Positions 42,921 through 64,000 of a stretch of 64,000 nt of DNA are shown piece after piece. The notes under the pieces were generated by a model. The model was not told the origin of the DNA. It ran no database searches and saw nothing but the letters and a program-made list of their open reading frames with translations. The DNA is from a virus. Position 1 is the first letter of the stretch, and each line of letters starts with the position of its first letter. Location: positions 72,740 through 136,739 of the IMG/VR virus record IMGVR_UViG_3300036399_001951. One strand, written 5' to 3'. Made by a program: the position numbers and the translations under genes.

Positions 42921-43103
42921 GATTTTTCTGCCTCCCAAAAGGGCCCTCAATAGAGGGCTTTTTTTTGGTCTGGGCCCGGGGCGATGGAGGTCCGTAAGAA
43001 ACCGCTCCGTAGTAGGCCCGGAGCGAGGCAAGCCTCTAGCAAGTGGTTCCAGGCCTTGCTATATTATTATCTAAAAGTTAGTATTATATCTAAAAACAAA
43101 CCT

Positions 43104-43340
43104 ATGAGCAAATTAACCCGCCCCTTGCTATTGGAATTATATACAGATTGGACTAAACGTTGGGGCTTGAGCCGCAATAGCGAAGAGATACGGTTCGGAC
43201 AGTGGGTTTGGATCCATTGGAATACTCAGTTAAGGGAACTAAAGGAGCGGTTCAAAGATTCCTCAAGCTTGCTAGATGGATTTTATGCTGAATCCCCAAA
43301 GACCGCATATGACCAGATTTACCGATTATTGGAATACTGA
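43104..43340 (+). CDS. hypothetical protein
   Basis: start MSKLTRP; RFGQW...DGFY motif. Confidence 0.6.
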   Translation: MSKLTRPLLLELYTDWTKRWGLSRNSEEIRFGQWVWIHWNTQLRELKERFKDSSSLLDGFYAESPKTAYDQIYRLLEY

Positions 43341-43452
43341 GCGATGGGATCTTGATCTTCCGGCTCTTAAAGAATGTTGAAAAAAAGTGATAAAAAGTTT
43401 TTCGGATTCCAAAATTCTTATTATATTTATATAAGAATTTAAAACAACAGAA

Positions 43453-43659
43453 ATGAAAAAGAAACTTGTAAATGGAATTGACCTTAAGACCTTAATAAAT
43501 CATCATAGACCGTTGCACGATATGCGAGATGATGTTTTATTACCAATGATGTGGACCTCAGTACGAATGATGGAGGACCCTACAGTTCCAACTGCATTTA
43601 AACATCACGCCGTGGAAATGTATCAGGACGCGGAGCGAGAATTAGCGATACGTAACTAA
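43453..43659 (+). CDS. hypothetical protein
   Basis: follows the promoter at 43422. Confidence 0.6.
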   Translation: MKKKLVNGIDLKTLINHHRPLHDMRDDVLLPMMWTSVRMMEDPTVPTAFKHHAVEMYQDAERELAIRN

Positions 43660-43671
43660 ATAAATTTAAAT

Positions 43672-43872
43672 ATGAATAATAATGAATTAATTCCTGATGA
43701 AGGAAGAGTTTGGAAAACCACTAGTGTAGCTATACAGAGCCGATGGTGGACCAAGGAATCAAGCGCATGGGATCGTGGAGGTAGCTTTAATATGGCATTA
43801 TATCTCAGATTCTGTGAAGCACAAATGAGTAAGGACCATGAAGAGCAAGTTGAGAAAACAAATCGAAAGTGA
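43672..43872 (+). CDS. hypothetical protein
   Basis: 66 aa, RGGSFNMALYLR. Confidence 0.55.
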   Translation: MNNNELIPDEGRVWKTTSVAIQSRWWTKESSAWDRGGSFNMALYLRFCEAQMSKDHEEQVEKTNRK

Positions 43873-43873
43873 C

Positions 43874-44005
43874 ATGAGGGAAGACCGTAAAGCGGCTGGC
43901 TATTTTGACGGCCGCTTTCGGACCCAAGTGCAACCTAATAAGCGCAAAAAGGAGGAACTGAAGCGGACTCGCGGAGCGAAAAAAGACTGGGAAAACGAAA
44001 CTTAG
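43874..44005 (+). CDS. small basic protein (not in the ORF track)
   Basis: 43 aa MREDRKAAGYFDGRFRTQVQPNKRKKEELKRTRGAKKDWENET. Confidence 0.5.
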   Translation: MREDRKAAGYFDGRFRTQVQPNKRKKEELKRTRGAKKDWENET

Positions 44006-44058
44006 GGCAGGTCTTGAAGTATATTAGAAATAAATAATAAAGAAAAAACACTACTAAA

Positions 44059-44385
44059 ATGGAGACACTAGAACCTATATTTAATCCGGGATTAATTGAC
44101 TTTATTAACTCCGTAGATGGTGACCTGGGACGGGACCCAGATAGCTTAGAGCTTTTTCAATGGATTGTTGAAGACCACTATGATGCGATCATGGAGGATA
44201 TGTTAGATTATTTTCAGGACCGACCTGACATGCAAGCTATGCAAGCAGAGACCGCTCTTCTAGAATTAGGAGCGATGTTGAAATACTTTGAAGAGAAGGA
44301 GGAATATGAGAAATGTTCTAAATTGGTAAGTGTCCAAAAGGAAATGAAGACCAGTTTTATAAAGGCTGGCCTTGTAAACCCATGA
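44059..44385 (+). CDS. acidic protein with C-terminal UVR-like EEYEKC motif
   Basis: LKYFEEKEEYEKCSKL; ATAAATA upstream. Confidence 0.65.
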   Translation: METLEPIFNPGLIDFINSVDGDLGRDPDSLELFQWIVEDHYDAIMEDMLDYFQDRPDMQAMQAETALLELGAMLKYFEEKEEYEKCSKLVSVQKEMKTSFIKAGLVNP

Positions 44386-44664
44386 TTCTCAAGATTTATA
44401 GGATATAAAAGACCCGGTTTGCCGGGTTTTTTTATGACCTTTTGCCCGCCATCTTTGACAAGAAGAAGCCGCTTCTCGCTCGGGATCCTATTTGATCTGG
44501 ACATCTCTTGGATTCAGTTAATCCGATCTCGCTCCCGAGCCAAGTGAGATCCAGAATCCAGAAGGCTGAGCAAATCCAGCTTCGCTCCGATAATAATTAT
44601 CCCAAACATAGTATCTAATTGAAGAAAAAGTATTATATTTATATAAGAACTTAAAACAATAAAG

Positions 44665-44883
44665 ATGAAAAACAAAAAAGAATGGGATGGCTTTTGCCAT
44701 CGATGCTCACAGGCCTCAATAGGCTACACTATGAGCTGGTTTAATCAGGAATTGATATGTCCGGATTGCGATAAGAAGGAACATCAACATCCCAAGATTG
44801 AAGAAGCTAAAGGAGCGGATTGGGAAGCTTGCAAGCAAGGTAACTTTAACTTTTCAGGAATCGGTAAACCTCACGACCTATGA
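44665..44883 (+). CDS. small Zn-finger protein
   Basis: CHRC...MSWFN..ICPDC. Confidence 0.7.
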   Translation: MKNKKEWDGFCHRCSQASIGYTMSWFNQELICPDCDKKEHQHPKIEEAKGADWEACKQGNFNFSGIGKPHDL

Positions 44884-45152
44884 TACGCCCAAGATCAGAA
44901 ATGTCCCCGCAAATCGAGATTGATTTGAACGGACCTCAAGGAAATGCATTTTGCCTATTAGGTATGGTGCCTAACTTGTGTAGAAATTATGGAGTAGAAG
45001 TAGAAGGCCTGGACGGGATGCGGGATCTAGGATTCGTTACCGCAAAAAACAGTGCAGAATACATACAGGACCAGATGAAAAGCGGAGATTATGAGAATCT
45101 CTTATCTGTATTCGATTCCTACTTCGGGGAATGGGTAATCCTATATAGATAG
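44880..45152 (+). CDS. conserved phage hypothetical protein
   Basis: IDLNGPQGNAF.LLG...MKSGDYENLL. Confidence 0.7.
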   Translation: MIRPRSEMSPQIEIDLNGPQGNAFCLLGMVPNLCRNYGVEVEGLDGMRDLGFVTAKNSAEYIQDQMKSGDYENLLSVFDSYFGEWVILYR

Positions 45153-45336
45153 GATATTAACTCCGTAGTTGATTGATTTGGAGGGGAACTTGTTTCCCCT
45201 TTTTCTTTTTCCCAAGCTTGGAGCCGCTTGCTAGAGGCTTGCCTCGCTCCGCAAAAATGTTTAAAATAAATTTTCAAAATTGTATTTTATATTTAAAAAA
45301 TGATTATATTTATATTATAACTTAAAAACAAATAAT

Positions 45337-45675
45337 ATGAAAAGAGAAATTGAATTAGTATTTAGCTATGATGCTATGGAAGAAACTTCTAATTTTTTTG
45401 AATTTCTTCAAGAAGTTATTGAAGAATTCAGAGTGGAAATAATTGGATTTTGGCCAATGAGCGCATCTGGATGTTGGCCCGAAATAACATTTAGAGGTGA
45501 AGATGATGATCTCTATAGATTATGCTTAAAATATCATGGTGATGATGAAGAAGTAGCTAGAGATTATTATGATGAATATTCAATAGAGAGTTCATCAAAT
45601 GAAATTAATATTCTTAAAGATGATCGATGGCCATCAAAGAATAAATGGATTGATAAAGATGGCAACTTCATTTAA
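45337..45675 (+). CDS. early acidic protein, paralogue of 41420-41881
   Basis: IIGFWP..ASGCWPEITFRG..KDDRW..KWIDKDG. Confidence 0.7.
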   Translation: MKREIELVFSYDAMEETSNFFEFLQEVIEEFRVEIIGFWPMSASGCWPEITFRGEDDDLYRLCLKYHGDDEEVARDYYDEYSIESSSNEINILKDDRWPSKNKWIDKDGNFI

Positions 45676-45846
45676 AAATTAAAATTTAAAATTAAAGAAA
45701 TGAGCAATGAAAGTTGCTCATTTTTTTTTGATGTTTTGCTAGAGCCGCTTGCTAGGGGATCTCCTCGCTCCGAGATTAATTTATCCGCATTGGTAACGGA
45801 TTCCCAAAAAAGTATTATATTTATATATAACTTAAAACAAAAGATC

Positions 45847-46002
45847 ATGTACAGTTTAGATTGTAATTATTACGAGAAGCAATTTTCCTCCATTGACCAA
45901 CTCATTGATGATGTGATTCAGAGCGGGATGGATCCGAACTATGAGATTACCTACAATGGCAAAGGCATTGGGGACCGGGCCATTGACCTAATCCAATTTT
46001 AG
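45847..46002 (+). CDS. hypothetical protein
   Basis: start MYSLDCNYY after the promoter at 45816. Confidence 0.6.
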   Translation: MYSLDCNYYEKQFSSIDQLIDDVIQSGMDPNYEITYNGKGIGDRAIDLIQF

Positions 46003-46250
46003 AAATTAAAAATTTAAGTGAGGAAACCGGCTAACTGCCGGTTTTTTAGGGTCCGAACTTTCGCAAACCTTGACCTTGGCAGAGAGTGGGCTCTCCCGCT
46101 CGGGAGCGAGTTAAGATCCAGAAATCAGTTGGATTCGGGATCGGCATTCGCTCCGAAAAATGTTTGCAATTTTTTTACCCAAAATGATACCAATTGGGAA
46201 ATATGTATTATATTTATATAAGAATTTAAACCAATTAAAAAACAAAGATT

Positions 46251-46928
46251 ATGAAAAATGTAGTTTTAAGCAGAACGATTACGAACAAAGATTCTAATTG
46301 TGTAGACCGTTACTTCCAGGACATCCAGGAATACGTTCCCCTAAGCGCTGATGAGGAAATCATCATAGCACGTAAAGTTAAAGAGGGTGACCCGAGCGCA
46401 CTGGAGCGATTAGTGAAGCACAATACTAGATTCGTTATTTCGGTAGCAAAGAAGTATCAGGGACGGGGCACACCCTTAAGTGACCTCATCAGCGAAGGTA
46501 ATGTGGGTCTAATTGAAGCAGCAAAAAGATTTGACCCAGAACGAGGACATCGCTTTATCACTTATGCAGTATGGTGGATTAAACAATCTATCTTAGCATC
46601 TATCGATAATGGTATTAAAAACTCTCACACTTCAATTGATGCTACAATTGGTGGCGGAGAGGATGAAGACTGGACAATTGCAAATCAATTGCGTTCAGAT
46701 TCTCCCAGCACTGACCACATCGTTGAGCAAGATTCAATTAAAACTCAAGCCAATCGAATGCTATCACAATTAGCAGAACGTGAAAGAGAGATTATCAAAT
46801 CACTATTTGGAATTGAGTGTAGAGCAATTGGAATTGATGAAGCTGGTAAGAAGTTTGGATTAACTCAACAGCGAATTGGACAAATCAGAGATAATGCTTT
46901 AAAGACCTTACAATCTAAGGTTAAGTAG
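46251..46928 (+). CDS. sigma70-family factor lacking most of region 3
   Basis: DRYFQDI, NTRFVISVAKKY, DLISEGNVGLIEAAKRFDPERG.RFITYAVWWI, ERERE..LFGI..GLTQQRIGQI. Confidence 0.88.
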   Translation: MKNVVLSRTITNKDSNCVDRYFQDIQEYVPLSADEEIIIARKVKEGDPSALERLVKHNTRFVISVAKKYQGRGTPLSDLISEGNVGLIEAAKRFDPERGHRFITYAVWWIKQSILASIDNGIKNSHTSIDATIGGGEDEDWTIANQLRSDSPSTDHIVEQDSIKTQANRMLSQLAEREREIIKSLFGIECRAIGIDEAGKKFGLTQQRIGQIRDNALKTLQSKVK

Positions 46929-47317
46929 AACCAAGCAACTCCGTAGTAAGGCCCTCCTTGTGGGGGCCTTTTTTATTTGCCAGGTCTGGAGCGGTCCTCA
47001 CCCGGACCTCATGCAGGTCATGGGGTAGGAGATCCGCTCCGTAGTGGCCGTGCCCGCCGAGGAGCGGCGTCGTCTTGGATGCTCTCGAAGCGGGGTCGCC
47101 CTGGAAAATGGGCAAAAAAATAATTCTAAGATTTTTATATTTAATAAATTATTATTACTATAGAGCTCGAGAAATTCGGGCTCTTTTTTGCGCCCAAGCT
47201 TGGAGATGTACCTTCGTGAATCTTCCCGCTCTGGAAAAGGAGCGAGAAAAGATCCCTTGGATTTTCAGGTATCTAGAATTATATGTATATTTACTTATAC
47301 TTAATAACTTAAACAAC

Positions 47318-47542
47318 ATGGAAACAACAGTGTTTATTAAAATCTCAGGTCGCAAGGAGCCAGGGTATCCGACAACATCGCATCAGGTAACATTCGATGG
47401 GGACCTTACCGTATTTGAAAACCTAGTAGATGGGATTATAGATCAATTAGGTTATCGTAAAGCAGATGTATACATCGATAATCCTGAGGAATTTAACGAG
47501 GACGAGCAGGAGACCCTAGAAACTATGGGATTCATATTATGA
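47318..47542 (+). CDS. hypothetical protein
   Basis: start METTVF after the promoter at 47286. Confidence 0.6.
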   Translation: METTVFIKISGRKEPGYPTTSHQVTFDGDLTVFENLVDGIIDQLGYRKADVYIDNPEEFNEDEQETLETMGFIL

Positions 47543-47769
47543 ATTGGCTACCGGTATCTGATCGACATCAACAGGGACAAACCTCAATTGGAAATGTCTG
47601 GATACGATTTACCCGGTCAGGAGCGATAGATGCATGGTACACCTGCTTTGGAGAGACACGGAAATGGTGCGCACAGGAAGGGGATACTGTGGAATTAGTA
47701 AGAGAGTTAATAGAAGAAGAATATCAACGGGTTCTGTTCTCCCGTCAGTTAGCTGAGAAAAACAGATAA
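47539..47769 (+). CDS. hypothetical protein
   Basis: ATGA overlap with the upstream gene. Confidence 0.55.
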   Translation: MNWLPVSDRHQQGQTSIGNVWIRFTRSGAIDAWYTCFGETRKWCAQEGDTVELVRELIEEEYQRVLFSRQLAEKNR

Positions 47770-47790
47770 TCTTTGTTTTAAGTTCTGATC

Positions 47791-47822
47791 AAGCCGATTA
47801 CTCCGTAGTCGGCTTTTTCTTT
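47791..47822 (+). terminator. intrinsic terminator containing CTCCGTAG
   Basis: AAGCCGATTA-CTCCG-TAGTCGGCTTTTT; similar hairpins at 49245-49278 and 50406-50437. Confidence 0.8.
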
Positions 47823-47948
47823 GCCCAGTTCCCGGAGCCACTTAACAGGAGCTCGCTTCGCTCCGAGAAAAGCTCAATAATAAATCAGCAGGATTTTTAG
47901 TTGTGGTAAATTTTGATTATATTTACCTATAACTTAAAAGTAGAAATC

Positions 47949-48182
47949 ATGAATGTATTTGAATTTGTATTAAGCGGCAATGAAATGACAATTGCAGTAG
48001 TAGTAGGAGCAGCCAGCCGAGAGCGAGCCCTTGTTCTTCTAAAGGAGAACTATGAAAACTTTGAAGAAGAATATGATTACGATAATGAAGATGCGATAAC
48101 ATCATATCGAGATTCAATTATCAGTAACACTACATGTACTGCTGAATTTGTACGTGAAATCTTTTCAACCGAAGAACTATGA
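47949..48182 (+). CDS. acidic hypothetical protein
   Basis: start MNVFEF after the promoter at 47918. Confidence 0.6.
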   Translation: MNVFEFVLSGNEMTIAVVVGAASRERALVLLKENYENFEEEYDYDNEDAITSYRDSIISNTTCTAEFVREIFSTEEL

Positions 48183-48499
48183 GAGCCTATCATGCAACCC
48201 AGGCTAGTAATATACCTAGCATCCTAGAGGAAGGATTAAAATCTATGTGGGAAGGAGTATATCTAACTGATTCAGAAGAGAGCGCATGCCGATGGATGGG
48301 ATTCAGATTGGCTGCAGTAGGGGAACCAGTAATGGCCGTGATAGAGGTCGAGGTTAATGAATACGATACAGTTGAAGGTATGGACCATTCCCCTCTAATG
48401 GAACAGATATTCGGAGTGGGAAAGAGTATCCTACATCCAAAGAGTATAAAACCTGAAAAAATTATAAACGTTAATTACTATCGATTAAATCAAAAGTAA
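48179..48499 (+). CDS. ADP-ribosyltransferase-fold protein (Tpt1/KptA-like)
   Basis: YHAT...I..EGL, GVYLT, AVIEV, I.PEKI. Confidence 0.6.
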   Translation: MRAYHATQASNIPSILEEGLKSMWEGVYLTDSEESACRWMGFRLAAVGEPVMAVIEVEVNEYDTVEGMDHSPLMEQIFGVGKSILHPKSIKPEKIINVNYYRLNQK

Positions 48500-48741
48500 A
48501 GGTAATCTAATCTTCTCTAGAAGCCGGCCCAATAAAGGTCGGCTTTTTTAGGGTCCCAACTAAGAGGACCTCCGCTTCGGCAGGGAGCGGGCATTCCCGC
48601 TCCCGAGCGGATCTGGATACTTGACCACCGGGATTCCGGTATCCAAGCTCGCTCCGAAAAGATTGATAAATTTTTTCAAAATAATTTTCAAGATTGAGGT
48701 ATTCTTTGTATATTTACTATATAACTTAAAACAAAAGAGAA

Positions 48742-48990
48742 ATGGTATTACAACCAATTAACCCGTCAGAATTGAGAGCGCGATTAAATCGTGGAACTGT
48801 TCAGTTTGCGTACAAGAAATTAGATGGCACTCTACGCACTGCCATTGGAACCACTTCACTGGAGAATGTGCCAGTTGACCATCAACCTAAAGGTGGAGAG
48901 AGTAGCCCTAAAGTTGTGGTTTACTTTGACCTTCAAAAAGGTGAATGGAGAAGTGTAAGTATTAATCGTGAAATCTTTATTGCAGAATAA
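48742..48990 (+). CDS. WYL_2/SH3-fold (DUF2693-like) protein
   Basis: L..GTVQFAYKKLDGTLRTAIGT...YFDLQKGEWRS. Confidence 0.75.
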   Translation: MVLQPINPSELRARLNRGTVQFAYKKLDGTLRTAIGTTSLENVPVDHQPKGGESSPKVVVYFDLQKGEWRSVSINREIFIAE

Positions 48991-48991
48991 G

Positions 48992-49222
48992 ATGGGAACG
49001 AAAGAATTAAACATGGTGGAAGGGCCGGATGGCCTAACCACCGTATCCGGAAAATGCGTATTTACAGGGGAAGAGTATTCCTGTCAAGTACCAACAGATG
49101 GAATTAAGATGTGGCTCAACGGGGAGCGGATTCAGCGTGCTCTACCGGGCGTGAGCCTAGACGATAGGGAATTCCTAATAAGTGGAATTAGTCCTAACGG
49201 CTGGAAAAAGACCTTTGGTTAG
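48992..49222 (+). CDS. conserved phage hypothetical protein
   Basis: W.NGE.IQ.ALP..S.DDREFLISGI.P..W...F. Confidence 0.7.
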   Translation: MGTKELNMVEGPDGLTTVSGKCVFTGEEYSCQVPTDGIKMWLNGERIQRALPGVSLDDREFLISGISPNGWKKTFG

Positions 49223-49405
49223 GTTGTTTTAAGTTAGATAAGATAAGGGTCGACTCCGTAGTCGGCCCTTTCTTTTTTCCCTAGCCCGGAGCGGATTACC
49301 AAGGGCCGGCCTCGCTCTGAGAAATGTGCAAAAATATATCTCATAGGATTTTCAAGTTAATGATAGAATGCCTATATTTACTTATAACTTAAAACTTAAA
49401 ACAAA

Positions 49406-49660
49406 ATGAAAAAAGAAAAATTAATTGAGAAACTAAATGAGTTTGAAAACGGATTCGAGCGGGATCCAGAAGTAATTGAACTTGTTTATAAGATAAAAGA
49501 GAAGTTTGATTCTCATTTTAATAAAACATTCTCGAGCAAAGAGATTGAATCTGATGAGTTTGATGAGATGAGCGAAGAGTATTATTATGCCCTGAAAGAG
49601 AATGATCCTGATGATGCATCGATTTTTCAGGTAATGTGGTTTGAAAATTGGTTAAAATAA
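49406..49660 (+). CDS. acidic hypothetical protein
   Basis: follows the promoter at 49373. Confidence 0.6.
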   Translation: MKKEKLIEKLNEFENGFERDPEVIELVYKIKEKFDSHFNKTFSSKEIESDEFDEMSEEYYYALKENDPDDASIFQVMWFENWLK

Positions 49661-49665
49661 TAACT

Positions 49666-49875
49666 ATGGAAGCAAACTCAAAACAAGAATGGTGGGATCT
49701 AGTAAGAGCGGATCTCGCTAAGTGGAATAGAGAGAACCACCCAGAAGATCGCATGGGTATTCAAGACTGGATCGGCGAAGTTGGACCTAAGATTCATGGA
49801 TGGATCGCGTTCAGAGACGAGTATGGAGATTGGGATGCCTCATTGAGCGGATTCCCAGACGATGAAGATTATTAA
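49666..49875 (+). CDS. hypothetical protein
   Basis: start MEANSK. Confidence 0.55.
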   Translation: MEANSKQEWWDLVRADLAKWNRENHPEDRMGIQDWIGEVGPKIHGWIAFRDEYGDWDASLSGFPDDEDY

Positions 49876-49982
49876 AGATTGTGGCACGTGTCTCTTGTAA
49901 AACTTTCAAAAAAGTTTCCAAAAAATTTTCAAGTATCAAAAATTCTTTGTATATTTACTTATAACTTAAAAACAAAAAAGAA

Positions 49983-50381
49983 ATGAAAGCAGGTAAGTAT
50001 TATGTTGGTGACCTATGTTATGTACTAGGTGATCGTTGGGACGAAGTTTGTGATCTTATTATTAAGGATCATGTATGCTTAGATGGTGTGTTTGAATTAA
50101 AGGACGGAACCCAGTTTGCAATATATGGAACAGCTTATGGAGATGGATTCTATAGTGACCAATATGCAAATGGATATCCAGTGGATTCAGGTTCAATCGG
50201 CTGTGTGTTAGTGGACTCCATAACTTCAGGTGAATTAGATGAATCCTTAGGAAATGTTATAGATTTCGATGATGATTTTACTACAAGTTCAGATAGTGGA
50301 ATAATCTATATCGGAGAAATTGAAATAGATACTGAAGGGAGCGAAGGAATAGATGATGAATCAATCAATGATATTTGGTAA
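49983..50381 (+). CDS. conserved phage acidic protein
   Basis: GKYYVGDLCYV, TAYGDG.Y, VDSGSIG. Confidence 0.7.
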   Translation: MKAGKYYVGDLCYVLGDRWDEVCDLIIKDHVCLDGVFELKDGTQFAIYGTAYGDGFYSDQYANGYPVDSGSIGCVLVDSITSGELDESLGNVIDFDDDFTTSSDSGIIYIGEIEIDTEGSEGIDDESINDIW

Positions 50382-50565
50382 GAAGTTGTTTTAAGTTAGG
50401 TAAAGAAAGGTCAACTCCGTAGTTGGCCTTTTCTTTTGCGGTATCCCCGGAGCGGGTAGCATCCCTCCCGCCTCGCTCCGAGAAACGTACAAAAATATAT
50501 TATCTAAAATTTTCAGGATTAAGGAATTCTTCTTATATTTACTTATAACTTAAAAACAAAAAGAA

Positions 50566-50931
50566 ATGAAAAATGTAACAGTATTAGCAATTGGAGTAGT
50601 TCAACCTGAAAACGGAAAAACTTGTTATGATTGGAATATGTATGATTCTGTGCCAGGAGTGATCTCCTTGACCTCAAGTGGATTCTTAATGTATCATGCT
50701 AATGAAGATGATTTTACACCGGGCGATCAATTACAATTAATCGCTAATGATTCAAATAGAAAATTAAAAACGGCAACAATCGTTGAATCATGTAGCGCAA
50801 ACCGAGAGGATGTCCTAGCAATGTTATTACGTAACCAATATGATTATTATCCAGCTAGAGCATTTAAGAAAAAGAGATTCTCTCGTAAATTGAGTACATC
50901 ATATTCAGTAAAAGGAATTTATATTAGTTAG
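50566..50931 (+). CDS. hypothetical protein
   Basis: single-gene cassette (promoter 50534, terminator ~50958). Confidence 0.65.
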   Translation: MKNVTVLAIGVVQPENGKTCYDWNMYDSVPGVISLTSSGFLMYHANEDDFTPGDQLQLIANDSNRKLKTATIVESCSANREDVLAMLLRNQYDYYPARAFKKKRFSRKLSTSYSVKGIYIS

Positions 50932-55251: not shown

Positions 55252-55257
55252 GAGACA

Positions 55258-56395: not shown

Positions 56396-56419
56396 CTCCG
56401 TAGTGTAATAAATATTATT

Positions 56420-56629
56420 ATGGAACTAATTGATAACTCAGTCTTAGAGGTAACCTATATAGAAAACACCTTTAAACTAGACAGTGGAGTAATAGTACGC
56501 CACATAAAGATACTTCATGGAGAAGAACTCATTAGCGAGCGGATCGTAAACCAGCAGGACTACTCTCTTGATTCCGACCTGGAATCTAATCTTGTGGAAA
56601 AAATAAAAGAATTTTCTAAAAATTTATAG
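56420..56629 (+). CDS. hypothetical protein
   Basis: 69-aa ORF. Confidence 0.5.
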   Translation: MELIDNSVLEVTYIENTFKLDSGVIVRHIKILHGEELISERIVNQQDYSLDSDLESNLVEKIKEFSKNL

Positions 56630-56693
56630 CAAATTATTTTCAGGTCCCAAGGATTCTTTGTATATTTACTATATAACTTAAAAACAAAAGATC

Positions 56694-56870
56694 ATGATTA
56701 AAGTCAAAATCAAAGACCTAAGAACAAAGCCGAAAGCCAAAGTCGGCGACAAAGTAGAATTTCAGATAGGAGAGGAGACCCTCATGGATACGGTGACCTA
56801 CGTTATGGATCACGTTGTGGAAGGAGAGAAATACGATCTTACTTACGTAAACTTCACTATAAAGAAATGA
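56694..56870 (+). CDS. small SH3/KOW-like protein (not in the ORF track)
   Basis: 58 aa MIKVKIKDLRTKPKAKVGDKVEF... after the promoter at 56661. Confidence 0.55.
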   Translation: MIKVKIKDLRTKPKAKVGDKVEFQIGEETLMDTVTYVMDHVVEGEKYDLTYVNFTIKK

Positions 56871-57121
56871 AAGCGACAGAAGTAAATAGCCTATTACGAG
56901 TTGGAGCTTATGATAGGTTGCGTAAGAAGCTTAAGAGAATGGCAATCCCTGAAAGAATCGATTCTCTTAATGATAGCTTTCACCTGGTTGACATGGACCC
57001 AGGTAGCTTAAAGTTCTTTAAGGAAAACTTCTCAGTTGAGATCGGAGCCTTAATCGTTGCAGAGCGAGATTTAAAAAAGGCAGTGGAGCTCTATTCAAAA
57101 TCTAAAAAGTTGAATAAATAA
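56867..57121 (+). CDS. hypothetical protein
   Basis: ATGA overlap with the upstream gene. Confidence 0.55.
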   Translation: MKATEVNSLLRVGAYDRLRKKLKRMAIPERIDSLNDSFHLVDMDPGSLKFFKENFSVEIGALIVAERDLKKAVELYSKSKKLNK

Positions 57122-57133
57122 TAAGAAAGCACC

Positions 57134-57616
57134 ATGGAAGAGAGAGCACCTGAACAGAGAGGATACATAAAGCTAGGACCTTTTAAAACTAAAATCGAAA
57201 ATGCATGGATTAGCGGTAAGTTCGCAGACATGCCAATTGAACTGGAGGATCGTACTCTCTTAGACTTAGGGATTCATAAGATAGAAGATTATGAGGTAGA
57301 TACTGGTAGCTCAATGCCTCAGGTTCATCATATAACCTGGACAGTAGAGATGTATGCTGGATATGGAGATATTAAAAACGAAACCGTTGGAATATCATTC
57401 GGCGACCCTACTATTATAAGCATTGAGTCAAGTATAGATTTTGAATACTATGAGCCCCATTCTGATGATCAAAAGACTTATCAATGGGAGGCTACCTTGA
57501 ATCTGAGCGAGTGGAAAATTGATACATCTGATTTTGAATGGTCAAACGAAGGCAACCTTGCTATAGATAATGTGGAAATAAATTTTTCAGAAAAGATAAT
57601 CATAATACAATCGTAA
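57134..57616 (+). CDS. acidic hypothetical protein
   Basis: ATAAATA upstream. Confidence 0.6.
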   Translation: MEERAPEQRGYIKLGPFKTKIENAWISGKFADMPIELEDRTLLDLGIHKIEDYEVDTGSSMPQVHHITWTVEMYAGYGDIKNETVGISFGDPTIISIESSIDFEYYEPHSDDQKTYQWEATLNLSEWKIDTSDFEWSNEGNLAIDNVEINFSEKIIIIQS

Positions 57617-57617
57617 C

Positions 57618-57956
57618 ATGAAGGAGTATATTCATACCATGAAAGTTCTCAGCCAGGAAGGCAAAGAATTTGAAGTTAAATTTGGGATACCTCAATTTAA
57701 AGAACAAGGAGCGGAGTCCCTATTTGAGAATCATAAAGGCGAAGTATATGGAGCTATTGTTCTTGGAATTACCCGAATGATGAACATGAGAGAGGATCGA
57801 ATGGCATGCTTCACCATCGGAGATCTAGTCTTTGAATTAGGTAAAGAATCTTCTAAGGATAATTTACATAGATGTATTAAATATTACGAATCCATAGAGG
57901 ACTATGAAACTTGTTCCTTTATACTTAATCACTTACTTAAATACGTCGAAGGTTAA
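57618..57956 (+). CDS. protein with C-terminal UVR-like EDYETC motif
   Basis: NLHRCIKYYESIEDYETCSFI. Confidence 0.65.
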   Translation: MKEYIHTMKVLSQEGKEFEVKFGIPQFKEQGAESLFENHKGEVYGAIVLGITRMMNMREDRMACFTIGDLVFELGKESSKDNLHRCIKYYESIEDYETCSFILNHLLKYVEG

Positions 57957-58134
57957 TTGGTTTAACTCCGTAGTTAGAGGCCTTAGAGGGCCTCTTTTTT
58001 TGCTTCCTGCCCGGAGCGAATAGGATACTCCAGGTGGAGCGCCACCCGCTCAGAAAAAAGTTAAAAAATAATTCATAAAATATTTTCTTTATTGAAACTT
58101 TCTCACTATATTTACTATATAAAACTTAATCAAA

Positions 58135-58311
58135 ATGAAAAGAGCAACCGGATTTAAAAAGTTAAACTGCAAGATCTGCGGGGAAGAGGTTCCCAAGGTA
58201 GATGAAAAAGCCGACAAAGTAACCTGTTGGGAATGCGTACAGAAATCCCTAAGAGGGGTTATATGTATAGATGATAGAGAACCAATTAATGAACCAGAAA
58301 ACGAAAACTAA
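58135..58311 (+). CDS. small Zn-finger protein (not in the ORF track)
   Basis: 58 aa with CKIC...CWEC after the promoter at 58107. Confidence 0.65.
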   Translation: MKRATGFKKLNCKICGEEVPKVDEKADKVTCWECVQKSLRGVICIDDREPINEPENEN

Positions 58312-58312
58312 A

Positions 58313-59032
58313 ATGAACTACACAAGCAAATCACAGAGCCTAGTAAAGTACTTTAAATCAATTCAAGGATTTAATCCTTTAACTATCGAAGAAGAGCGGG
58401 AGCTCGTCTTAAACATTCAACAAGGATGTCGTAAATCCTTAGAGAAATTAGTAACGCATAATCTAAAGATTGTGGTGACTATCGCCAACAAGAATTCCAA
58501 CCGGGGTATCCTAGTAGATGACCTTATCCAACAAGGAAACATTGGATTATACGAAGCTGCTTTACGATTCAATCCTGATCCTACTACTAGAACCAGATTC
58601 GCAAGCTTTGCTCAGACTCGAGTTCTAAAGAACATGAATCAATTGATTGACGAATGTGGCCGTCCTGTAAGGATTCCAGTCAATCAAGAATACGAAAGAT
58701 ACTTGGCACTTCGAGATGGTAAGGAGGTAGAGAACATTAAACCAATTCAATTAGATGCCTATTTCGGAGAGGATAAAAAGAACACGGTAGGCTCTCGTAT
58801 CCTGCATAGTATGGAGGATGATGATTCAAATCAAGAACAAATCGATGCCCTGAACCAGTGCTTAAACATCTTAAACGATCGTGAAAGACTTGTTATAAAC
58901 TATGTATTCGGTCTAGAAGACGATGCTATCACTCAGCTTGAGATTGCAGAGAAGATGGGAACGACAGCAGCTACTATTAGCAATATCAAGAAAGCTGCTA
59001 TTGAAAAAATAAGAAAACACTTTGATGCTTAA
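58313..59032 (+). CDS. sigma70-family RNA polymerase sigma factor
   Basis: start MNYTSK; SLVKYF, NLKIVVTIA, DLIQQGNIGL.EAA.RF.P, VRIP, LNDRER.VI..FGL HTH. Confidence 0.88.
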   Translation: MNYTSKSQSLVKYFKSIQGFNPLTIEEERELVLNIQQGCRKSLEKLVTHNLKIVVTIANKNSNRGILVDDLIQQGNIGLYEAALRFNPDPTTRTRFASFAQTRVLKNMNQLIDECGRPVRIPVNQEYERYLALRDGKEVENIKPIQLDAYFGEDKKNTVGSRILHSMEDDDSNQEQIDALNQCLNILNDRERLVINYVFGLEDDAITQLEIAEKMGTTAATISNIKKAAIEKIRKHFDA

Positions 59033-59035
59033 GTC

Positions 59036-59368
59036 ATGAAAAAGACAGTAATCATATTCGACGGGGAGGAAGATCATGAAATTGGCCTCAGCTATTTCTA
59101 TCAGAATCCCCTTATCGAGTCGGCCAATCCAGATCAGATCGTTGAGTATTATATATCAACTACAATCCTGGCCGAAGTCGTTAGAGATATCGTACCTCTT
59201 ATCAAAGAAGGAACAGTTAAGACAATTAATGATAAAGCAATAGGACTCGACTATTTAAAGAAAGTAGAGAGCGGGGTATCGATCCTTGAGACGATGTTGG
59301 AAGATCTATTCGGCAAGGAATCGGCTCAATATATTATTGAAACTACTAAATCTAAAACTGATGAATAG
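59036..59368 (+). CDS. hypothetical protein
   Basis: in operon. Confidence 0.6.
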   Translation: MKKTVIIFDGEEDHEIGLSYFYQNPLIESANPDQIVEYYISTTILAEVVRDIVPLIKEGTVKTINDKAIGLDYLKKVESGVSILETMLEDLFGKESAQYIIETTKSKTDE

Positions 59369-59825
59369 AGTAATAATATTCCTAGTCTCCCTTGTCCTGC
59401 TCTGGTTTGGATTGAATCACTTTAAACCTAAAAAGGAGGCATGGCAAGTTGATGTATCCGATCCAGTAGTAAGATTCTATCTTATAGAATGGGAGAGAGA
59501 TATGAAGAACCACGGGCTAGATCCTGCCCCGGCGCTAGGTCGACTCCGTAGTATAACAGTTGTTAATACTACTGAATGGGCAGGTCAATATGTAACTAGC
59601 GAGAGAGTAATCTATATCTCTAGATATCAAGTTCAGCGGGGACCTGCCTCTGCCAGAGCCACGGTGTATCACGAGCTTGGACATATGGCTTTTAAATTAG
59701 AGCATGGAGATTGTGGTATAATGGATATAAACTCTGAGACGGAGGAATACTATTCTGCAAATTGGGGAGGTCTGTTAAATGAGTACATAAACAAATGTTA
59801 TGAAAGAAGATGGGAATCCCTTTAA
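59361..59825 (+). CDS. exported/membrane-anchored zincin metallopeptidase
   Basis: N-terminal TM; HELGH...LEH...IM metzincin-like motif. Confidence 0.75.
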   Translation: MNRVIIFLVSLVLLWFGLNHFKPKKEAWQVDVSDPVVRFYLIEWERDMKNHGLDPAPALGRLRSITVVNTTEWAGQYVTSERVIYISRYQVQRGPASARATVYHELGHMAFKLEHGDCGIMDINSETEEYYSANWGGLLNEYINKCYERRWESL

Positions 59826-60072
59826 AGGAGAAGAATCTAAAGACTGGATCAGAAAGATAGATGCTCTTAAGAAAATGGACTTAGGTCTATTTTACGAATT
59901 GGTATTCACATCAATTGTTAACTTCTCAGAAGAAGCAATTAAGGACGGCTCCCCTAAGAAGAATAAGATTCGGGCTCTAGACAGATTAATTGAGCATTTT
60001 CAAGACTTAGAAGAATACGAGAAATGCGCAGCCCTAAAGAAAGTATTAGATCAAATCAAGGAGAATGAATAA
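59800..60072 (+). CDS. protein with C-terminal UVR-like EEYEKC motif
   Basis: LIEHFQDLEEYEKCAALKK. Confidence 0.65.
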   Translation: MKEDGNPFKGEESKDWIRKIDALKKMDLGLFYELVFTSIVNFSEEAIKDGSPKKNKIRALDRLIEHFQDLEEYEKCAALKKVLDQIKENE

Positions 60073-60337
60073 GTTATTATTTCTTGGCATGGCAAGCCGT
60101 TCAGTAGACCTGAGCGGGCCTCCTGTCTCGGTAGGAGAAGAGCTTCGCTCGACAGTAGTAGCCGGAGTAATGTTTACTAAGGTCTATCAAGAAGCCTGCC
60201 GCCTGGCCGGAATCAAGGAGCCTGAGGCAGGATACCGGACCGTTCTGAATCGGGTGAAATCAGAAGGCCATGCACAAGTAGCGTGCAAGAAGGATCGCTC
60301 GGCTCAGGCAGTATTCACTATCATTCGAAGGCTCTGA
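60065..60337 (+). CDS. hypothetical protein
   Basis: 90-aa ORF. Confidence 0.5.
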   Translation: MNKLLFLGMASRSVDLSGPPVSVGEELRSTVVAGVMFTKVYQEACRLAGIKEPEAGYRTVLNRVKSEGHAQVACKKDRSAQAVFTIIRRL

Positions 60338-60431
60338 GCGGGTGGATCCCAACTGAAGCCCTCCGGCTTGGGTCCAAACAAAATTTATAAAAACATTTTC
60401 AAATCCCAAAATCAATTAGTATATTTACAAT

Positions 60432-60695
60432 ATGAAGAAGACAGCAATAGTAGTGGCGATGTTAATCTTAGTTAGTTGTGACACTAAAAGTAAGATTGAC
60501 CCTTATTCATTTAAGGCACCCTACGAAATTCAGAAACATTTTAGTCACGAAGTTAAATGGGATGCTGCAAAGCAAGAGAGATGGATGAACGGTGAATTGT
60601 GGGTAGATTCTACGAAAAACTTTAAATGTATCGTAATCCACCACAGTGATGTTCAAACTCCTGATCACGCATCCACTGTAACTATTGAACCCTAA
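60432..60695 (+). CDS. small lipoprotein
   Basis: MKKTAIVVAMLILVS-C. Confidence 0.6.
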   Translation: MKKTAIVVAMLILVSCDTKSKIDPYSFKAPYEIQKHFSHEVKWDAAKQERWMNGELWVDSTKNFKCIVIHHSDVQTPDHASTVTIEP

Positions 60696-61014
60696 TAGGA
60701 TGAGTATCTTAGATGTATGGTTCAAAGCTAAGGCTGCAAGGGATTCAGTTGAACAGGATCTAGCAGAGCAGGAGAGAACGAAGATTCTACCGGATCTTTT
60801 CCAGCAGAGTAATTCTAATGTTAGATACATAAGATCACACATCAACACTCTACGTGGAAATGCCAATTCCGTACAAGGAGCCACGGCTGCAGATACTAAA
60901 CGCCGACGGGACGGGGCAAAGGCCCAACTGGAATGGCTAGAGCGGAAGCTAGACGAGGAGATCTTTTATCTGCAACACTATGCTCGGCTCTTAGGAAAAA
61001 AGATAGAAATTTAA
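60685..61014 (+). CDS. hypothetical coiled-coil protein
   Basis: 109-aa ORF. Confidence 0.55.
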   Translation: MNPNRMSILDVWFKAKAARDSVEQDLAEQERTKILPDLFQQSNSNVRYIRSHINTLRGNANSVQGATAADTKRRRDGAKAQLEWLERKLDEEIFYLQHYARLLGKKIEI

Positions 61015-61080
61015 TCCCTAAAATTTTCAGGTCCCAAGATTTTTTCGTATATTTACCTATAACCAATTAAATTAAGAATC

Positions 61081-61296
61081 ATGAAGAAATTATTTTGCGT
61101 ATGTGTTACCGACCCTAACAATGTCTATGGATTAGAGAGTCCAATAATCTTTCACGTTAAATGCGAAGATTCTAATAAAGCAGACGAGGAAGTTCGAGTG
61201 ATGCTAGAAGAAGAGTACGAATATGAGAAGGAATGGATTAATGAATTAGAGATCTTCACATTCGAAGTAAGTGATTCCGAAATAATTGAAATTTAA
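61081..61296 (+). CDS. acidic hypothetical protein flanked by 42-bp identical repeats
   Basis: lies between duplicated promoters 61022-61063 and 61295-61336. Confidence 0.65.
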   Translation: MKKLFCVCVTDPNNVYGLESPIIFHVKCEDSNKADEEVRVMLEEEYEYEKEWINELEIFTFEVSDSEIIEI

Positions 61297-61354
61297 TTTT
61301 CAGGTCCCAAGATTTTTTCGTATATTTACCTATAACTAATTAAAACCAAAAAAC

Positions 61355-61786
61355 ATGGCAACAAGAAGCAGAATCGCAATTGAATTAGAAGATGGATCAG
61401 TAGAATCTATTTACTGTCACTGGGACGGTTATCCTGAAGGAAACGGTAGAGTCTTATTAGACCACTACACTCTTCCAGAAAAGGTACAAGACTTAATTAA
61501 TCTAGGAAGCATATCTTCCCTAGCCCCTATCTTGGAATCAACCGGTAAACATTCGTTTGATAACCCTGAACCAGGAGTAGTAGTTGCATACGGTAGAGAC
61601 CGAGGAGAAAAAGGAGTAGATAAAATAAAACACAAGTCAGTCTCAGATTTCTTTAATGGAGACATAGAGGAATACGGATACCTATTTACTCAAGAAGGGG
61701 AGTGGCTATGCAAGTCTGCCTATGCAGGATATAAGACCCCTGTTGTAATTGACTATATTCTCTCTGGAGAAATTAAATTATCGTAA
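61355..61786 (+). CDS. conserved phage protein (M.TRS.I...IYCHWDGYP family)
   Basis: MATRSRI, SIYCHWDGYP, LG.ISSL, YGRDRGE, EEYGYLF. Confidence 0.75.
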   Translation: MATRSRIAIELEDGSVESIYCHWDGYPEGNGRVLLDHYTLPEKVQDLINLGSISSLAPILESTGKHSFDNPEPGVVVAYGRDRGEKGVDKIKHKSVSDFFNGDIEEYGYLFTQEGEWLCKSAYAGYKTPVVIDYILSGEIKLS

Positions 61787-62018
61787 TCTTTGCTCTAATC
61801 ATAGGACCCGCTTCGGCGGGTTTTTTTGTGCTCTTCCCTGGAGCGGATGTTATTCACTGAATAGCATTCCCTTGGATCCTCACCCGCTCAGGAGCGAGCA
61901 GAATTCAGTGATGGGACGACACCCGTCCTGATAAAAATACGAAAATTTTTTCCCCGACATTTTCAAATTCCCAACATTCTTAGTATATTTACTATATAAA
62001 CCAATTAACATATTAACA

Positions 62019-62453
62019 ATGAAAAGAGCAGTTGTAGTTTTAAGATTTGGCATCAGTCAGCCTTCAGTTGGAGACATTGAAGCAATTAAAAGATTAACCA
62101 ATGGCACAATGGATGCTATGGGACAGCCTCATCCAATAGGGATGATATCAGTGTTATATACTGATATGGAATTGAGTGAAATCAAACAGGTCTTCAATGA
62201 TGTTGAAGAGGACACCAATGACTTCTTACCCGTGATGATATTCAACTGGGGAGATCCTAACGTGCAATTTGATCTTAAGACAGATGACATAGAAGATATG
62301 TTCAATCATGTACCTAACTTCTGCGAAGATCAGAAGGAAGTAGTAGTCCTCACCTTGGACGATATCCTAGATAAGATCTCTAGAACGGGTGTCGAGAGCC
62401 TAGAGCAAGAGGAGTTGGCCCTTCTAAAATCTTTTGCAAAAAGTGGAAAATAA
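62019..62453 (+). CDS. hypothetical protein with C-terminal DUF6576-like motif
   Basis: LDDILDKISRTGVESL.QEE..LL. Confidence 0.65.
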   Translation: MKRAVVVLRFGISQPSVGDIEAIKRLTNGTMDAMGQPHPIGMISVLYTDMELSEIKQVFNDVEEDTNDFLPVMIFNWGDPNVQFDLKTDDIEDMFNHVPNFCEDQKEVVVLTLDDILDKISRTGVESLEQEELALLKSFAKSGK

Positions 62454-62504
62454 TTTTCGTAACCCAATTATTCTTTGTATATTTACCTTATAAACAATTA
62501 AACG

Positions 62505-63665
62505 ATGATAGAGCTAAAAGGAACAAAAAAAGAGCAAGCCGTGAGAGCTTGGTTTAACCGAACAAAACAGGGCAAGGTACCTGTGAACGCTAAAGTAATT
62601 GACATCTTTAGAGAATTCGAACGGGACCATCCTGAAATCAGCTATGGCTGTCTCAATGGTACCATCAAGAAGATGATCGAAGAAGGTTACGGTGAAGTCA
62701 CAGCAGGTCCACCTAAAGAGAGAGTTAACTCCGTAGCCCGAGTTGAGCCTGTCGAGCCAGTCGAGCCAGAGATCATTACAATACAGGACATGGAATTTCC
62801 TGACTTTAAATTGCATCGCACTGGTAAAAAGCTGGATGATATATTCTCAGATCACGAAGAAGGTGGTGGACTCTATGGAGGTACGGTTAACATTGTAATT
62901 GGCGAGTCAGGTGTAGGTAAATCCACGGTACTCCTGGACATGTTGGCCTCGGTGCAGAAAGAGAACCCTAGTGCGAAGGTGTTATACGTATCAAGTGAAA
63001 TGACCAGGAATGATATCTTATTCTATTATAAGAAGACTCCTTCAATCGCACAGGTACCTACCCTACTCTTAATGGACTATGTGAAGACGGGTCAGTTGGA
63101 TCAGGTAATCTCTAAAACCTTAAATGGAGATTGGGACATCATCCTTATTGACTCTCATCAGGACATCCTAGTAAAGTTGAAAGAAGTGATGGGATGGAAG
63201 TCTACCTATGCTGAATCGTGGTTGACTAACATTATGATTGACGCCGCTGAAAAAGCAGGTACTGCAATCCTTGCAATCCAACACATGACCAAGGGCGGAC
63301 AGTATGTAGGCTCCACTTATCTAAAGCATGCCACTACCTCCATGATGGAGATACTATTCGACGATGCAGGTCAGCGATATGTTCGCTTCTCAAAGAACCG
63401 ACGCGGTGGATCAGCAGTAGGAAAGCGCCTCTACTTTAGACTAGAAGACGGTGAAGTAGTATACGACGGGGCAAGATATAAAGAGAACGAGGAATTGAGA
63501 GAGATCGAAGATCGCGAGTCTATCCGTCAGGTCGACCTTAGCCAAAAGTTCGAAGAGATCTTTATCGGTGCCAGACAAATCATTGATGAGAGCTCCGTAG
63601 CGGATGATGACGAGGAGGAGACGGATGGTATACCATTTGAAATCTATCAGGGTGAGGATAATTAA
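62505..63665 (+). CDS. radA: RadA/Sms-like RecA-superfamily ATPase
   Basis: GESGVGKST, VLYVSSE, IILIDS.Q, QH.TKGG..VGS..LKH, KNRRG (cf. RadA KNRFG); no Zn finger or Lon domain. Confidence 0.75.
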   Translation: MIELKGTKKEQAVRAWFNRTKQGKVPVNAKVIDIFREFERDHPEISYGCLNGTIKKMIEEGYGEVTAGPPKERVNSVARVEPVEPVEPEIITIQDMEFPDFKLHRTGKKLDDIFSDHEEGGGLYGGTVNIVIGESGVGKSTVLLDMLASVQKENPSAKVLYVSSEMTRNDILFYYKKTPSIAQVPTLLLMDYVKTGQLDQVISKTLNGDWDIILIDSHQDILVKLKEVMGWKSTYAESWLTNIMIDAAEKAGTAILAIQHMTKGGQYVGSTYLKHATTSMMEILFDDAGQRYVRFSKNRRGGSAVGKRLYFRLEDGEVVYDGARYKENEELREIEDRESIRQVDLSQKFEEIFIGARQIIDESSVADDDEEETDGIPFEIYQGEDN

Positions 63666-63725
63666 TTCCTCACCCAACTTAAAAAAAGAGAAAAGTTTAG
63701 TATAATTAATTAAAACCGAAAAGCA

Positions 63726-64000
63726 ATGATTATTAAAGAAGTAACATCAGACAAGTTCCAAGAACTTAGAGCTCAGCTCAACGAAGCAGAGTCAGTAAAG
63801 AAAGTAGTACCGATTGGAGCCATCTCCGTAGATGATGAGTCCCTAAAGCGAGGACAGATCCTAATCGGCGGACAACCTGTAAAAGTAAGCACAGGCTTCT
63901 TCTACAAATTAGGTTCCATGTTGAAGGTGAACGTAAGCCTTACCCGTAACATGATTGATAAAGGTGACCATCAAATTGCGGCTGCCCTCATCAATGCCCT
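63726..64000 (+). CDS. hypothetical protein, truncated by the window end
   Basis: open frame MIIKEVTSDKF... after AGTATAAT. Confidence 0.55.
   Translation, partial: MIIKEVTSDKFQELRAQLNEAESVKKVVPIGAISVDDESLKRGQILIGGQPVKVSTGFFYKLGSMLKVNVSLTRNMIDKGDHQIAAALINA

Follow-up and report, generated by a model that had tools for sequence, protein, structure and literature searches.

A stretch of 64,000 nucleotides from an uncultured virus (IMG/VR record IMGVR_UViG_3300036399_001951, positions 72,740 to 136,739; referred to as the window, position 1 being its first letter) contained an exact eight-letter word, CTCCGTAG, in 16 copies, all of which were on the + strand, with none on the − strand. The word is real, strongly non-random and conserved, both here and in the relatives of this phage being restricted to a single block of early-type genes. 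By analogy with the one-strand motifs of T5-, phiKMV- and tf/LUZ24-like phages, it is tentatively regarded as a DNA-level strand-specific recognition site of the nick-associated kind, which is the reading preferred below.

Occurrence of the word in the window and in the whole record

In 100 dinucleotide-preserving shuffles of the window the word appeared 0.68 times on average and four times at most, and none of the 100 shuffles reached 16. The entire record of 136,739 bases had the same 16 copies, none elsewhere and none in reverse, all of them lying within its last 21 kb. The first-pass annotation of the window, made from the sequence alone, had seen no copy before 43 kb; as the upstream 115 kb of the record are empty of the word, this absence extends over all of the 115 kb. 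The string count in the window and in the whole record also recovered each of the 16 positions given in that annotation, on the + strand only. The letter T followed the word in 12 of the 16 window copies. The copies, the block around them and the gene which served as an anchor for finding relatives are given below in window coordinates, with open reading frames abbreviated as ORFs.

40646..64000, + strand: early-type gene block with the motif, made of small ORFs and reaching the end of the record
43005..43012, + strand: copy 1, promoter-upstream spacer after a terminator; CGCTCCG pairs with a downstream CGGAGCG
44109..44116, + strand: copy 2, within ORF 44059-44385, frame ..C TCC GTA G..
45161..45168, + strand: copy 3, 9 nt past the stop of ORF 44880-45152, at the apex of a small hairpin, with the terminator at 45180 downstream
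46939..46946, + strand: copy 4, 11 nt past the stop of the sigma gene 46251-46928, directly before the terminator at 46948
47037..47044, + strand: copy 5, intergenic, with ORF 47075 starting 31 nt on
47801..47808, + strand: copy 6, apex of the terminator hairpin 47791-47815
49254..49261, + strand: copy 7, apex of the terminator hairpin 49245-49270
50415..50422, + strand: copy 8, apex of the terminator hairpin in a homologous module
52189..52196, + strand: copy 9, within ORF 51923-52399, frame ..C TCC GTA G..
53379..53386, + strand: copy 10, near the 3' end of the LRV-repeat ORF 52456-53409, where it codes for DSVV
56396..56403, + strand: copy 11, 1 nt past the stop of ORF 55703-56395, ending 17 nt before the next start
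57966..57973, + strand: copy 12, 10 nt past the stop of ORF 57618-57956, directly before the terminator at 57976
59544..59551, + strand: copy 13, within ORF 59286-59825, frame CTC CGT AG.
62505..63665, + strand: gene of a RadA/Sms-like RecA-fold ATPase ("helicase"), the anchor gene
62729..62736, + strand: copy 14, variable linker of the RadA/Sms-like ATPase gene, kept in relatives L003, L004 and L005
63593..63600, + strand: copy 15, variable C-terminal tail of the RadA/Sms-like ATPase gene, kept in L001, L003 and L004
63824..63831, + strand: copy 16, 5' part of an ORF homologous to a conserved protein of 372-393 aa, kept in L001

The three copies described at first pass as the apex of terminator hairpins (47801, 49254 and 50415) are indeed placed there, with folding z of -5.2, -4.9 and -4.2, respectively: the first two were in the list of terminator-like hairpins, their apex being formed by the motif, and the third folds alike. 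Three others, said to lie just before terminators, are found 9-19 nt upstream of the stems at 45180, 46948 and 57976 (copies at 45161, 46939 and 57966), which brings the copies inside or directly before intrinsic terminators to 6 of the 16. Seven copies are within ORFs (44109, 52189, 53379, 59544, 62729, 63593 and 63824), in agreement with the previous estimate of six or more, and the copy at 43005 falls in an ORF rendered doubtful by the alignment of the promoter modules.

Conservation of the word in related phages

Five relatives were found in the viral collection via the ATPase, the profile of which reached 33 loci. Forward/reverse counts of CTCCGTAG in the whole records of these five relatives were 0/10, 0/16, 0/7, 8/1 and 5/1, the word invariably following the strand of the early genes and keeping to a single stretch; in a control set of 53 unrelated sigma-bearing phage loci there were only 10 single matches, five per strand. 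In 23 non-redundant sequences of relatives with a total length of 449 kb, the 8-mer had 252 copies on the + strand and four on the − strand (7.1 per strand expected by base composition), and it was conserved among relatives whose proteins share only 26-79% identity.

The conserved word exists in two alleles. The G clade, comprising loci with at least 57% identity together with L076, L083 and L089 at 50-55%, keeps CTCCGTAG (6-12 copies on the + strand vs 0 on the − strand), while the top strand-biased 8-mer of the more distant loci is CTCCCTAG (7-14 on the + strand vs 0-1 on the − strand), i.e., the letter at position 5 switches from G in one clade to C in the more distant clade, and some genomes mix both. 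In complete genomes all copies were confined to one block of 8-11 kb: 10 of 10 within 255,208-263,394 in a genome of 270,962 bases, 10 of 10 within 117,958-126,144 in a genome of 271,290 bases and 13 of 13 within 173,700-184,736 in a genome of 253,137 bases, with 0-1 reverse copies and 0-2 matches to the reversed control pattern. The first copy stands 1-2.4 kb past the first early promoter in this phage, G002 and G003.

The proposal of a directional signal is thus strongly supported by the one-strand occurrence genome-wide, in the five close relatives and, at 252 to 4, in the 23 relatives; the strand-specific count suggested at first pass showed the word neither evenly distributed on both strands nor lacking in relatives.

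Exactness and placement of the word

The full word reads A-CTCC[G/C]TAG-T. Among 253 sites, position -1 was A in 228 and position +1 was T in 219, while position -3 avoided A, positions +2 to +4 avoided T, and no further conservation was present. The 10-mer ACTCC[G/C]TAGT was found 199 times on the + strand and once on the − strand, and every one-mismatch variant of the 8-bp core had 0-1 occurrences: the site specificity is "digital". The letters flanking the core (AT at 199 sites, TT at 18 and TA at two) did not covary, so the apparent ACT/AGT mini-stem is not a selected hairpin and was rejected as such.

Up to the ATPase gene, 77 of the 137 sites were coding and 60 were non-coding or overlapped a stop codon, in a block that is ~88% coding. 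The non-coding sites with both neighbours defined (n=55) were mostly nearer to the upstream stop (48 sites, vs six nearer to the next start and one tied), with a median distance of 10 nt to the stop and 61 nt to the next start, and at 16 sites the TAG of the word is itself the stop codon. The preferred coding frame was ..C TCC [G/C]TA G.., giving Ser-Val or Ser-Leu (78 vs 17 in the other open frame). Both sites of the ATPase gene are located in poorly conserved linkers, where "DSV" is almost the sole kept feature; such a pattern in otherwise variable linkers points to selection of the word on the level of nucleotides. The spacing of the dispersed copies in the G clade was more even than random (coefficient of variation 0.35-0.59; P 0.014 for the window), in contrast to the C clade, where it was not even (coefficient of variation about 1-1.4).

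Integron-like cassettes bounded by the word were considered and rejected, because the changes in gene order between the window and L001 were not at the sites, and the ends of contigs L069 and L075, 22 nt before a copy, were treated as chance. A full-text literature search matched one of the strings in 1,355 papers, of which the 25 listed had primers or unrelated content only; this does not prove the word to be unpublished.

Tandem array at the right edge of the block

The record of the window ends 335 bases past the ATPase gene, while the relatives continue with, in this order, the conserved 372-393-aa protein, a minus-strand gene and a GC-rich non-coding region, in which the word recurs two to five times at intervals of 57-58 bp. 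Past this array the GC content drops, and the + strand genes located there are without the word. The array consists of tandem repeats in GC-rich non-coding DNA followed by AT-rich DNA, the word being also dispersed over kilobases, and no initiator was recognised. Array folds were no better than those of shuffles on either strand (z 0.31 and 1.27). The conserved 372-393-aa protein had no Pfam family above the threshold, and the AlphaFold model of the 393-aa protein (pLDDT 79) gave no PDB fold match at E <= 0.001.

When the whole collection was scanned for two copies 44-50 bases apart, 32 stretches were returned, all but a few of which belong to this clade. The paired matches in L117, L120, L123, L129 and L133, with copies 11-55 bp apart and strictly periodic (27 bp) only in L129, were treated as unrelated, since homologues of the recombinase-like, RadA-like and 393-aa proteins were not found there. 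The repeat in L129, a contig labelled as a giant-virus metagenome-assembled genome (MAG), has eight copies of the word with the 27-bp period at 3330-3519 and is probably a chance tandem repeat.

Several other repeated features were noticed. In L004, four iteron-like direct repeats with a 22-23 bp period (GTATTGAGGTTGGC...) are placed at 14287-14391, just left of three motif copies, and three paralogous ORFs starting with M(L/I)KSFK (12926-13420, 14693-15235 and 15336 onward) surround the array region, their leaders sharing an AAATAA(A)TTAAAA box. In L078 (15753-20754), and also in L075, 26 copies of GAGTTTACC with a period of ~63 bp are coding, of the leucine-rich-repeat type and unrelated to the motif.

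Minus-strand recombinase-like gene next to the array

The protein encoded by the minus-strand gene contains HTH_17 and Resolvase domains; among curated families the IS607 transposase NF033518 is its best match (E 2e-26, which is below the curated cut-off), and it also matches solved catalytic domains of the IS607 family. Of the 22 loci that extend this far, 20 have the gene, in synteny and on the − strand. A wider search for the protein returned the same clade only. In 17 of 18 sequences the canonical serine of the RVS motif is replaced by A, G, P, N or D, and none of the columns nearby is Ser or Thr throughout, while the DRLAR motif has been preserved. Judged from these residues, the protein is probably inactive as a recombinase, and the replacement of the serine with DRLAR retained suggests domestication as a DNA binder.

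Copies of the word in + orientation also stand at conserved places within the gene itself; in five G-clade genes, for instance, one spans the loop of the former active site (GTTES). The first array copy is located upstream of the gene start at a distance of 116-136 nt in six of seven G-clade loci and of 183-217 nt in seven C-clade loci. A comparison of protein residues with the G/C allele in L083, the odd lineage, gave no clear signal, 4 of the 40 clade-separating columns being G-like.

Nick-type site as the preferred interpretation

If the word is a nick-type site, A-CTCC[G/C]TAG-T would be read by a phage-encoded protein of near-absolute sequence specificity, and the + strand of the packaged DNA (the sense strand for the early genes) would be interrupted at or beside each copy, the interruptions being sealed after entry by the ATP-dependent ligase of the phage. 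The sites would be tolerated only where they come at no cost, i.e., after stop codons, in terminator loops and in variable Ser-Val/Ser-Leu linkers, while the apparently inactive IS607-type recombinase gene beside the array may supply the site reader. A gene for ATP-dependent DNA ligase was present in all four records searched, including all three near-complete genomes.

The closest documented analogue, one-strand motifs associated with nicks, is outside the range of mechanisms named at first pass (nut-like, processing, Chi/KOPS-like, primase and translocase), none of which could be demonstrated. According to the published accounts, the 14 nicks of phage tf are all located in its top strand, at TACT/RTGMC, with only 17 near-sites, every one of them on that strand, and in its relatives a variant differing by one base has 8-9 copies, on one strand and at similar positions; phage Rembedalsseter has 13 nicks at WACTRTGAC, the sites of which are concentrated to one side of the genome, in and outside genes, and WACTRTGAC is enriched in 61 phages (9.0 vs 0.7 expected by chance); the phiKMV-like phages have nicks at CGACxxxxxCCTA/CTCCGG on the non-coding strand (Kulakov 2009, as reported in a citing paper). 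The function of such phage nicks is still called unknown in these accounts. The word has in common with these motifs an exact 9-10-letter sequence on one strand and about 10-17 copies where less than one is expected. Likewise, it is kept across relatives of little nucleotide identity with one-base variants between relatives, it occurs in and outside genes with regional concentration, and a phage ligase is present. Where position -2 is T (113 of the 253 sites), TACTCCG is common to the word and the phiKMV nick site.

The motif, its polarity, exactness, conservation, allele switch, confinement to one block and anatomy are observed, whereas we infer that the word acts on DNA, that it marks nicks and that the recombinase-like protein may be its reader. 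The orientation kept inside the minus-strand gene and in the unstructured non-coding array argues for DNA rather than mRNA, and the + strand genes without the word beyond the edge and the digital specificity point in the same direction. Pointing to the transcript level are the co-orientation with the early genes, the start after the first early promoters and the closeness to stops and terminators. This second group can also be explained by constraint, terminator loops and the spacers that follow stops being the only free letters in the short intergenic regions, and antisense read-through of the minus-strand gene is possible.

Several differences from the known cases speak against a nick-type site. 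The known nick motifs are spread over much of the genome, whereas all copies here are in 3-15% of it, in an early block of 8-25 kb of a roughly 270 kb jumbo phage; and the phiKMV nicks are on the non-coding strand, in contrast to the word on the sense strand. Arrays with a 57-58 bp period at a fixed distance from a recombinase-like gene have no precedent among nick sites and are a better fit to a binding site. The position of 48 of the 55 intergenic copies nearer to the upstream stop is explained equally well by a transcript-level signal, and the seven-letter likeness to the phiKMV site may be due to chance. Finally, no nickase was identified, two HNH-like ORFs giving only weak PHROG matches:

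23214-24731 and 24741-25865, − strand: adjacent large ORFs with weak HNH-endonuclease PHROG matches, candidate nucleases

Alternative interpretations

A possible, though doubtful, alternative, compatible with the nick-type site, is that the word is the binding site of the IS607-type, probably inactive protein with its N-terminal MerR-type helix-turn-helix, which would nucleate on the array and the dispersed copies and act as a polar barrier or silencer; its target would be a process that tracks along the early block, for example read-through of transcription or replication forks that meet transcription head-on. It fits with the IS607 family match and the two domains, the − strand position in 20 of 22 loci, the near-fixed distance to the first array copy, the loss of the serine with DRLAR kept and the conserved word copies inside the gene. 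In PMC6188088, TnpA proteins of the IS607 family are described to bind short 9-bp direct repeats near the element end beside tnpA and then to spread along the DNA, which resembles the short direct repeats found here just upstream of a gene with N-terminal HTH and C-terminal serine-recombinase domains. However, the IS607 motifs are helically phased at ~10 bp according to PMC6188088, while the period here is 57-58 bp with further copies dispersed over many kilobases, and the gene is syntenic and vertically kept rather than mobile, has no tnpB and lost the canonical serine. Furthermore, regulator sites are normally degenerate and without co-orientation over kilobases, in contrast to the exact word with its 252:4 polarity; the dispersed sites do not overlap with early promoters, and the comparison of residues with the allele in L083 (4 of 40 columns G-like) gave no clear support. 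An action of the word in or after transcription of the early block, either as an ops- or nut-like pause or antitermination loading site or as an mRNA processing or protein-binding site at the 3' ends of early cistrons, is rather unlikely. Such a signal would explain the co-orientation with all early genes, the first copy past the first early promoter, the excess of non-coding or stop-overlapping sites (60 of 137) in a largely coding block, the vicinity of upstream stops (48 of 55, with 16 sites providing the stop) and the position of six of the 16 window copies inside or shortly ahead of intrinsic terminators. Moreover, the core of the RfaH ops element, GGCGGTAG, has five of its eight letters in common with the word. 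Like the RfaH ops and lambda nut elements, the word is polar and placed on the sense strand of a transcribed region with multiple terminators, several of its copies standing beside terminators, but ops is a single element in the 5' leader of a long operon, whereas the word has many copies per region, at cistron 3' ends, in terminator loops and in genes. The orientation is also unchanged inside the minus-strand gene and in the array upstream of it, the + strand genes past the array are without the word, two copies of L001 stand after the T-run of a terminator, and the C allele alters a letter central to the ops comparison. The nut-like version is further weakened by the lack of a conserved hairpin or flank covariation, by array folds not better than shuffles and by the absence of an Rfam family. 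A search for NusG-like genes by the NGN domain gave none in G000 and four relatives (G006, G008, G009 and G010, two of the four being near-complete), with a positive control in 11 of 14 genomes and with a host paralogue being possible.

It is very unlikely that replication starts or a motor is loaded at the array, with the dispersed copies as KOPS- or ssi-like polar loading or priming signals for the RadA/Sms-like ATPase that would keep replication or translocation co-directional with early transcription. The GC-rich array followed by AT-rich DNA, 2-5 kb downstream of the RecA-fold ATPase with its N-terminal extension, the four 22-23-bp iteron-like repeats of L004 and the more even than random spacing in the G clade would suit such a role. 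The C-clade spacing is uneven, though, no primase or initiator was recognised (the 372-393-aa protein being without Pfam family or fold match), and general priming cannot depend on the word, since copies are lacking from the remainder of the roughly 250 kb genome. The KOPS-like version put forward at first pass is contradicted by the lack of opposed copies on the far side. Chi and KOPS/SRS are likewise exact, short, strictly oriented words readable by a tracking enzyme, but they are chromosome-wide and host-determined, whereas the word is confined to one phage block, exists in two alleles within a single genome and has no opposed arm. That the word mimics a host Chi and, clustered at a physical DNA end, would switch off RecBCD/AddAB entering from the right is highly improbable. 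The word is exact, short and polar with the highest density at the right edge, and a + strand word has the canonical Chi orientation for an enzyme entering from the right; furthermore, contigs L084, L086, L090 and L091 end 85-460 bp after the array. Nevertheless, the complete assemblies run through the array with start points differing between records, G and C alleles are found together in single genomes, and neither the strict 57-58 bp period nor the fixed distance to the recombinase-like gene is expected for Chi. The T7-type and T4 late promoters are another class of co-oriented conserved words, some of them in upstream genes and sometimes in tandem near an origin. Unlike these promoters, the word has only 10-14 conserved letters (vs about 20 for the T7 type), its copies are in terminator loops or after stops at no fixed distance to the next start, and each early gene is already preceded by a strong host-type promoter; a search for a T7-like polymerase (PF00940) gave no match, with the positive control likewise silent.

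The phage and other features of the block

The record encodes a tail sheath, a tape-measure-like protein, endolysin-type domains, ribonucleotide reductase, a GroEL-type chaperonin and ATP-dependent DNA ligase. Its CheckV-type completeness is 54%, the genomes of the relatives have 253-271 kb, and near-identical DNA was present in 18 lake-water DNA runs. From the gene content, the size of the relatives and the lake-water runs, the record represents part of the genome, of roughly 250-270 kb, of a freshwater jumbo myovirus. A search of the phage collection for near-identical DNA gave no match. A genome scan with the GroEL of the phage returned a single contig, L066, of 8.9 kb and from a MAG titled Patescibacteria; it encodes a GroEL fragment 63% identical to that of the phage and is probably mis-binned phage DNA.

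The motif block differs from the rest in its GC content (~0.39 vs 0.32 elsewhere) and is rich in intrinsic terminators. The promoter TTTTCA-N18-TATATT(TAC) has 17 exact + strand copies at 47262-61990, each preceding a small ORF, and is absent elsewhere in the record; the TATATTTA box of the promoters is also kept in the blocks of the relatives. Two genes of the sigma-70 family are located in the block (46251-46928 and 58271-59032, + strand), of which the relatives carry the second only, and the best curated family of the RecA-fold ATPase of the block is RadA/Sms. This anatomy suggests that the block is an early or host-takeover region. Contigs of four lake RNA libraries over 43000-62999 were short, low-depth pieces; four of their ends were within 8 nt of the motif and several other contigs spanned motifs, and no conclusion is drawn from them.

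Another oligonucleotide, AACTTAAAA, with 19 + strand copies (40666-63684) and five − strand copies over the entire record, mostly stands 10-20 nt upstream of the start codons of block genes without Shine-Dalgarno and possibly represents a leader or translation signal. Three reverse copies, TTTTAAGTT, stand before motif-bearing terminators. A repeated intergenic module has inverted repeats between the terminator and the promoter:

42344-42396, 47831-47866, 49285-49320, 50446-50481, 51002-51048 and 51443-51476: CCCGGAGCG ... CGCTCCG repeats

The first-pass annotation had connected the word with the GCTCCG boxes through a common CTCCG core. This is literally correct, but the link is not general: the GGAGCG/CGCTCC hairpins were present in this phage and its closest relative, L001, and absent from L004 and the C-variant clade, and the connection was dropped because the hairpins are lineage-specific.

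Two adjacent + strand genes (52456-53409 and 53465-54271) encode proteins with leucine-rich-repeat-variant/HEAT-like repeats, and a perfect 24-nt direct repeat, GATCCGTACCCGGGAAAATTTTTT, is located at 39613-39636 and 39680-39703 (+ strand, 67 nt apart) in a GC-rich stretch to the left of the block. Two relatives have a gene for tRNA-Arg(TCT) within their early block (3466-3540 in L001 and 3776-3850 in L005), while a tRNA scan of the window found none. An Rfam search of the window, L003 and L004 gave no family, Pfam and PHROG scans of 20 further block proteins were uninformative, and a terminase domain search for locating the packaging genes had no match.

Implications for the jumbo phage clade

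In its fullest, and distinctly unlikely, form the interpretation would make the word a directional DNA code that marks the early block of a freshwater jumbo phage clade and has an inactivated IS607 transposase, now domesticated, as its reader. The sites so marked would be nicked or act as points of loading on the sense strand, offering primers already in place or entry signals for a motor; the process would start from the 57-58 bp array and align replication or translocation with early transcription. If this were true, the 50-year-old puzzle of phage nicks would gain a function and a reader protein. So far, exact one-strand motifs linked to nicks have come from a few small phages, and their purpose is still given as unknown in the literature on them. 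New in comparison with these motifs are the confinement to one coherent block of a large uncultured phage clade, the clear allele switch between clades and the regular array beside a candidate reader gene, an anatomy that offers handles without counterpart in the known cases: the strand, the sites, the protein and the edge. The word could also aid the annotation of early regions and of genome organisation in metagenome assemblies of jumbo phages.

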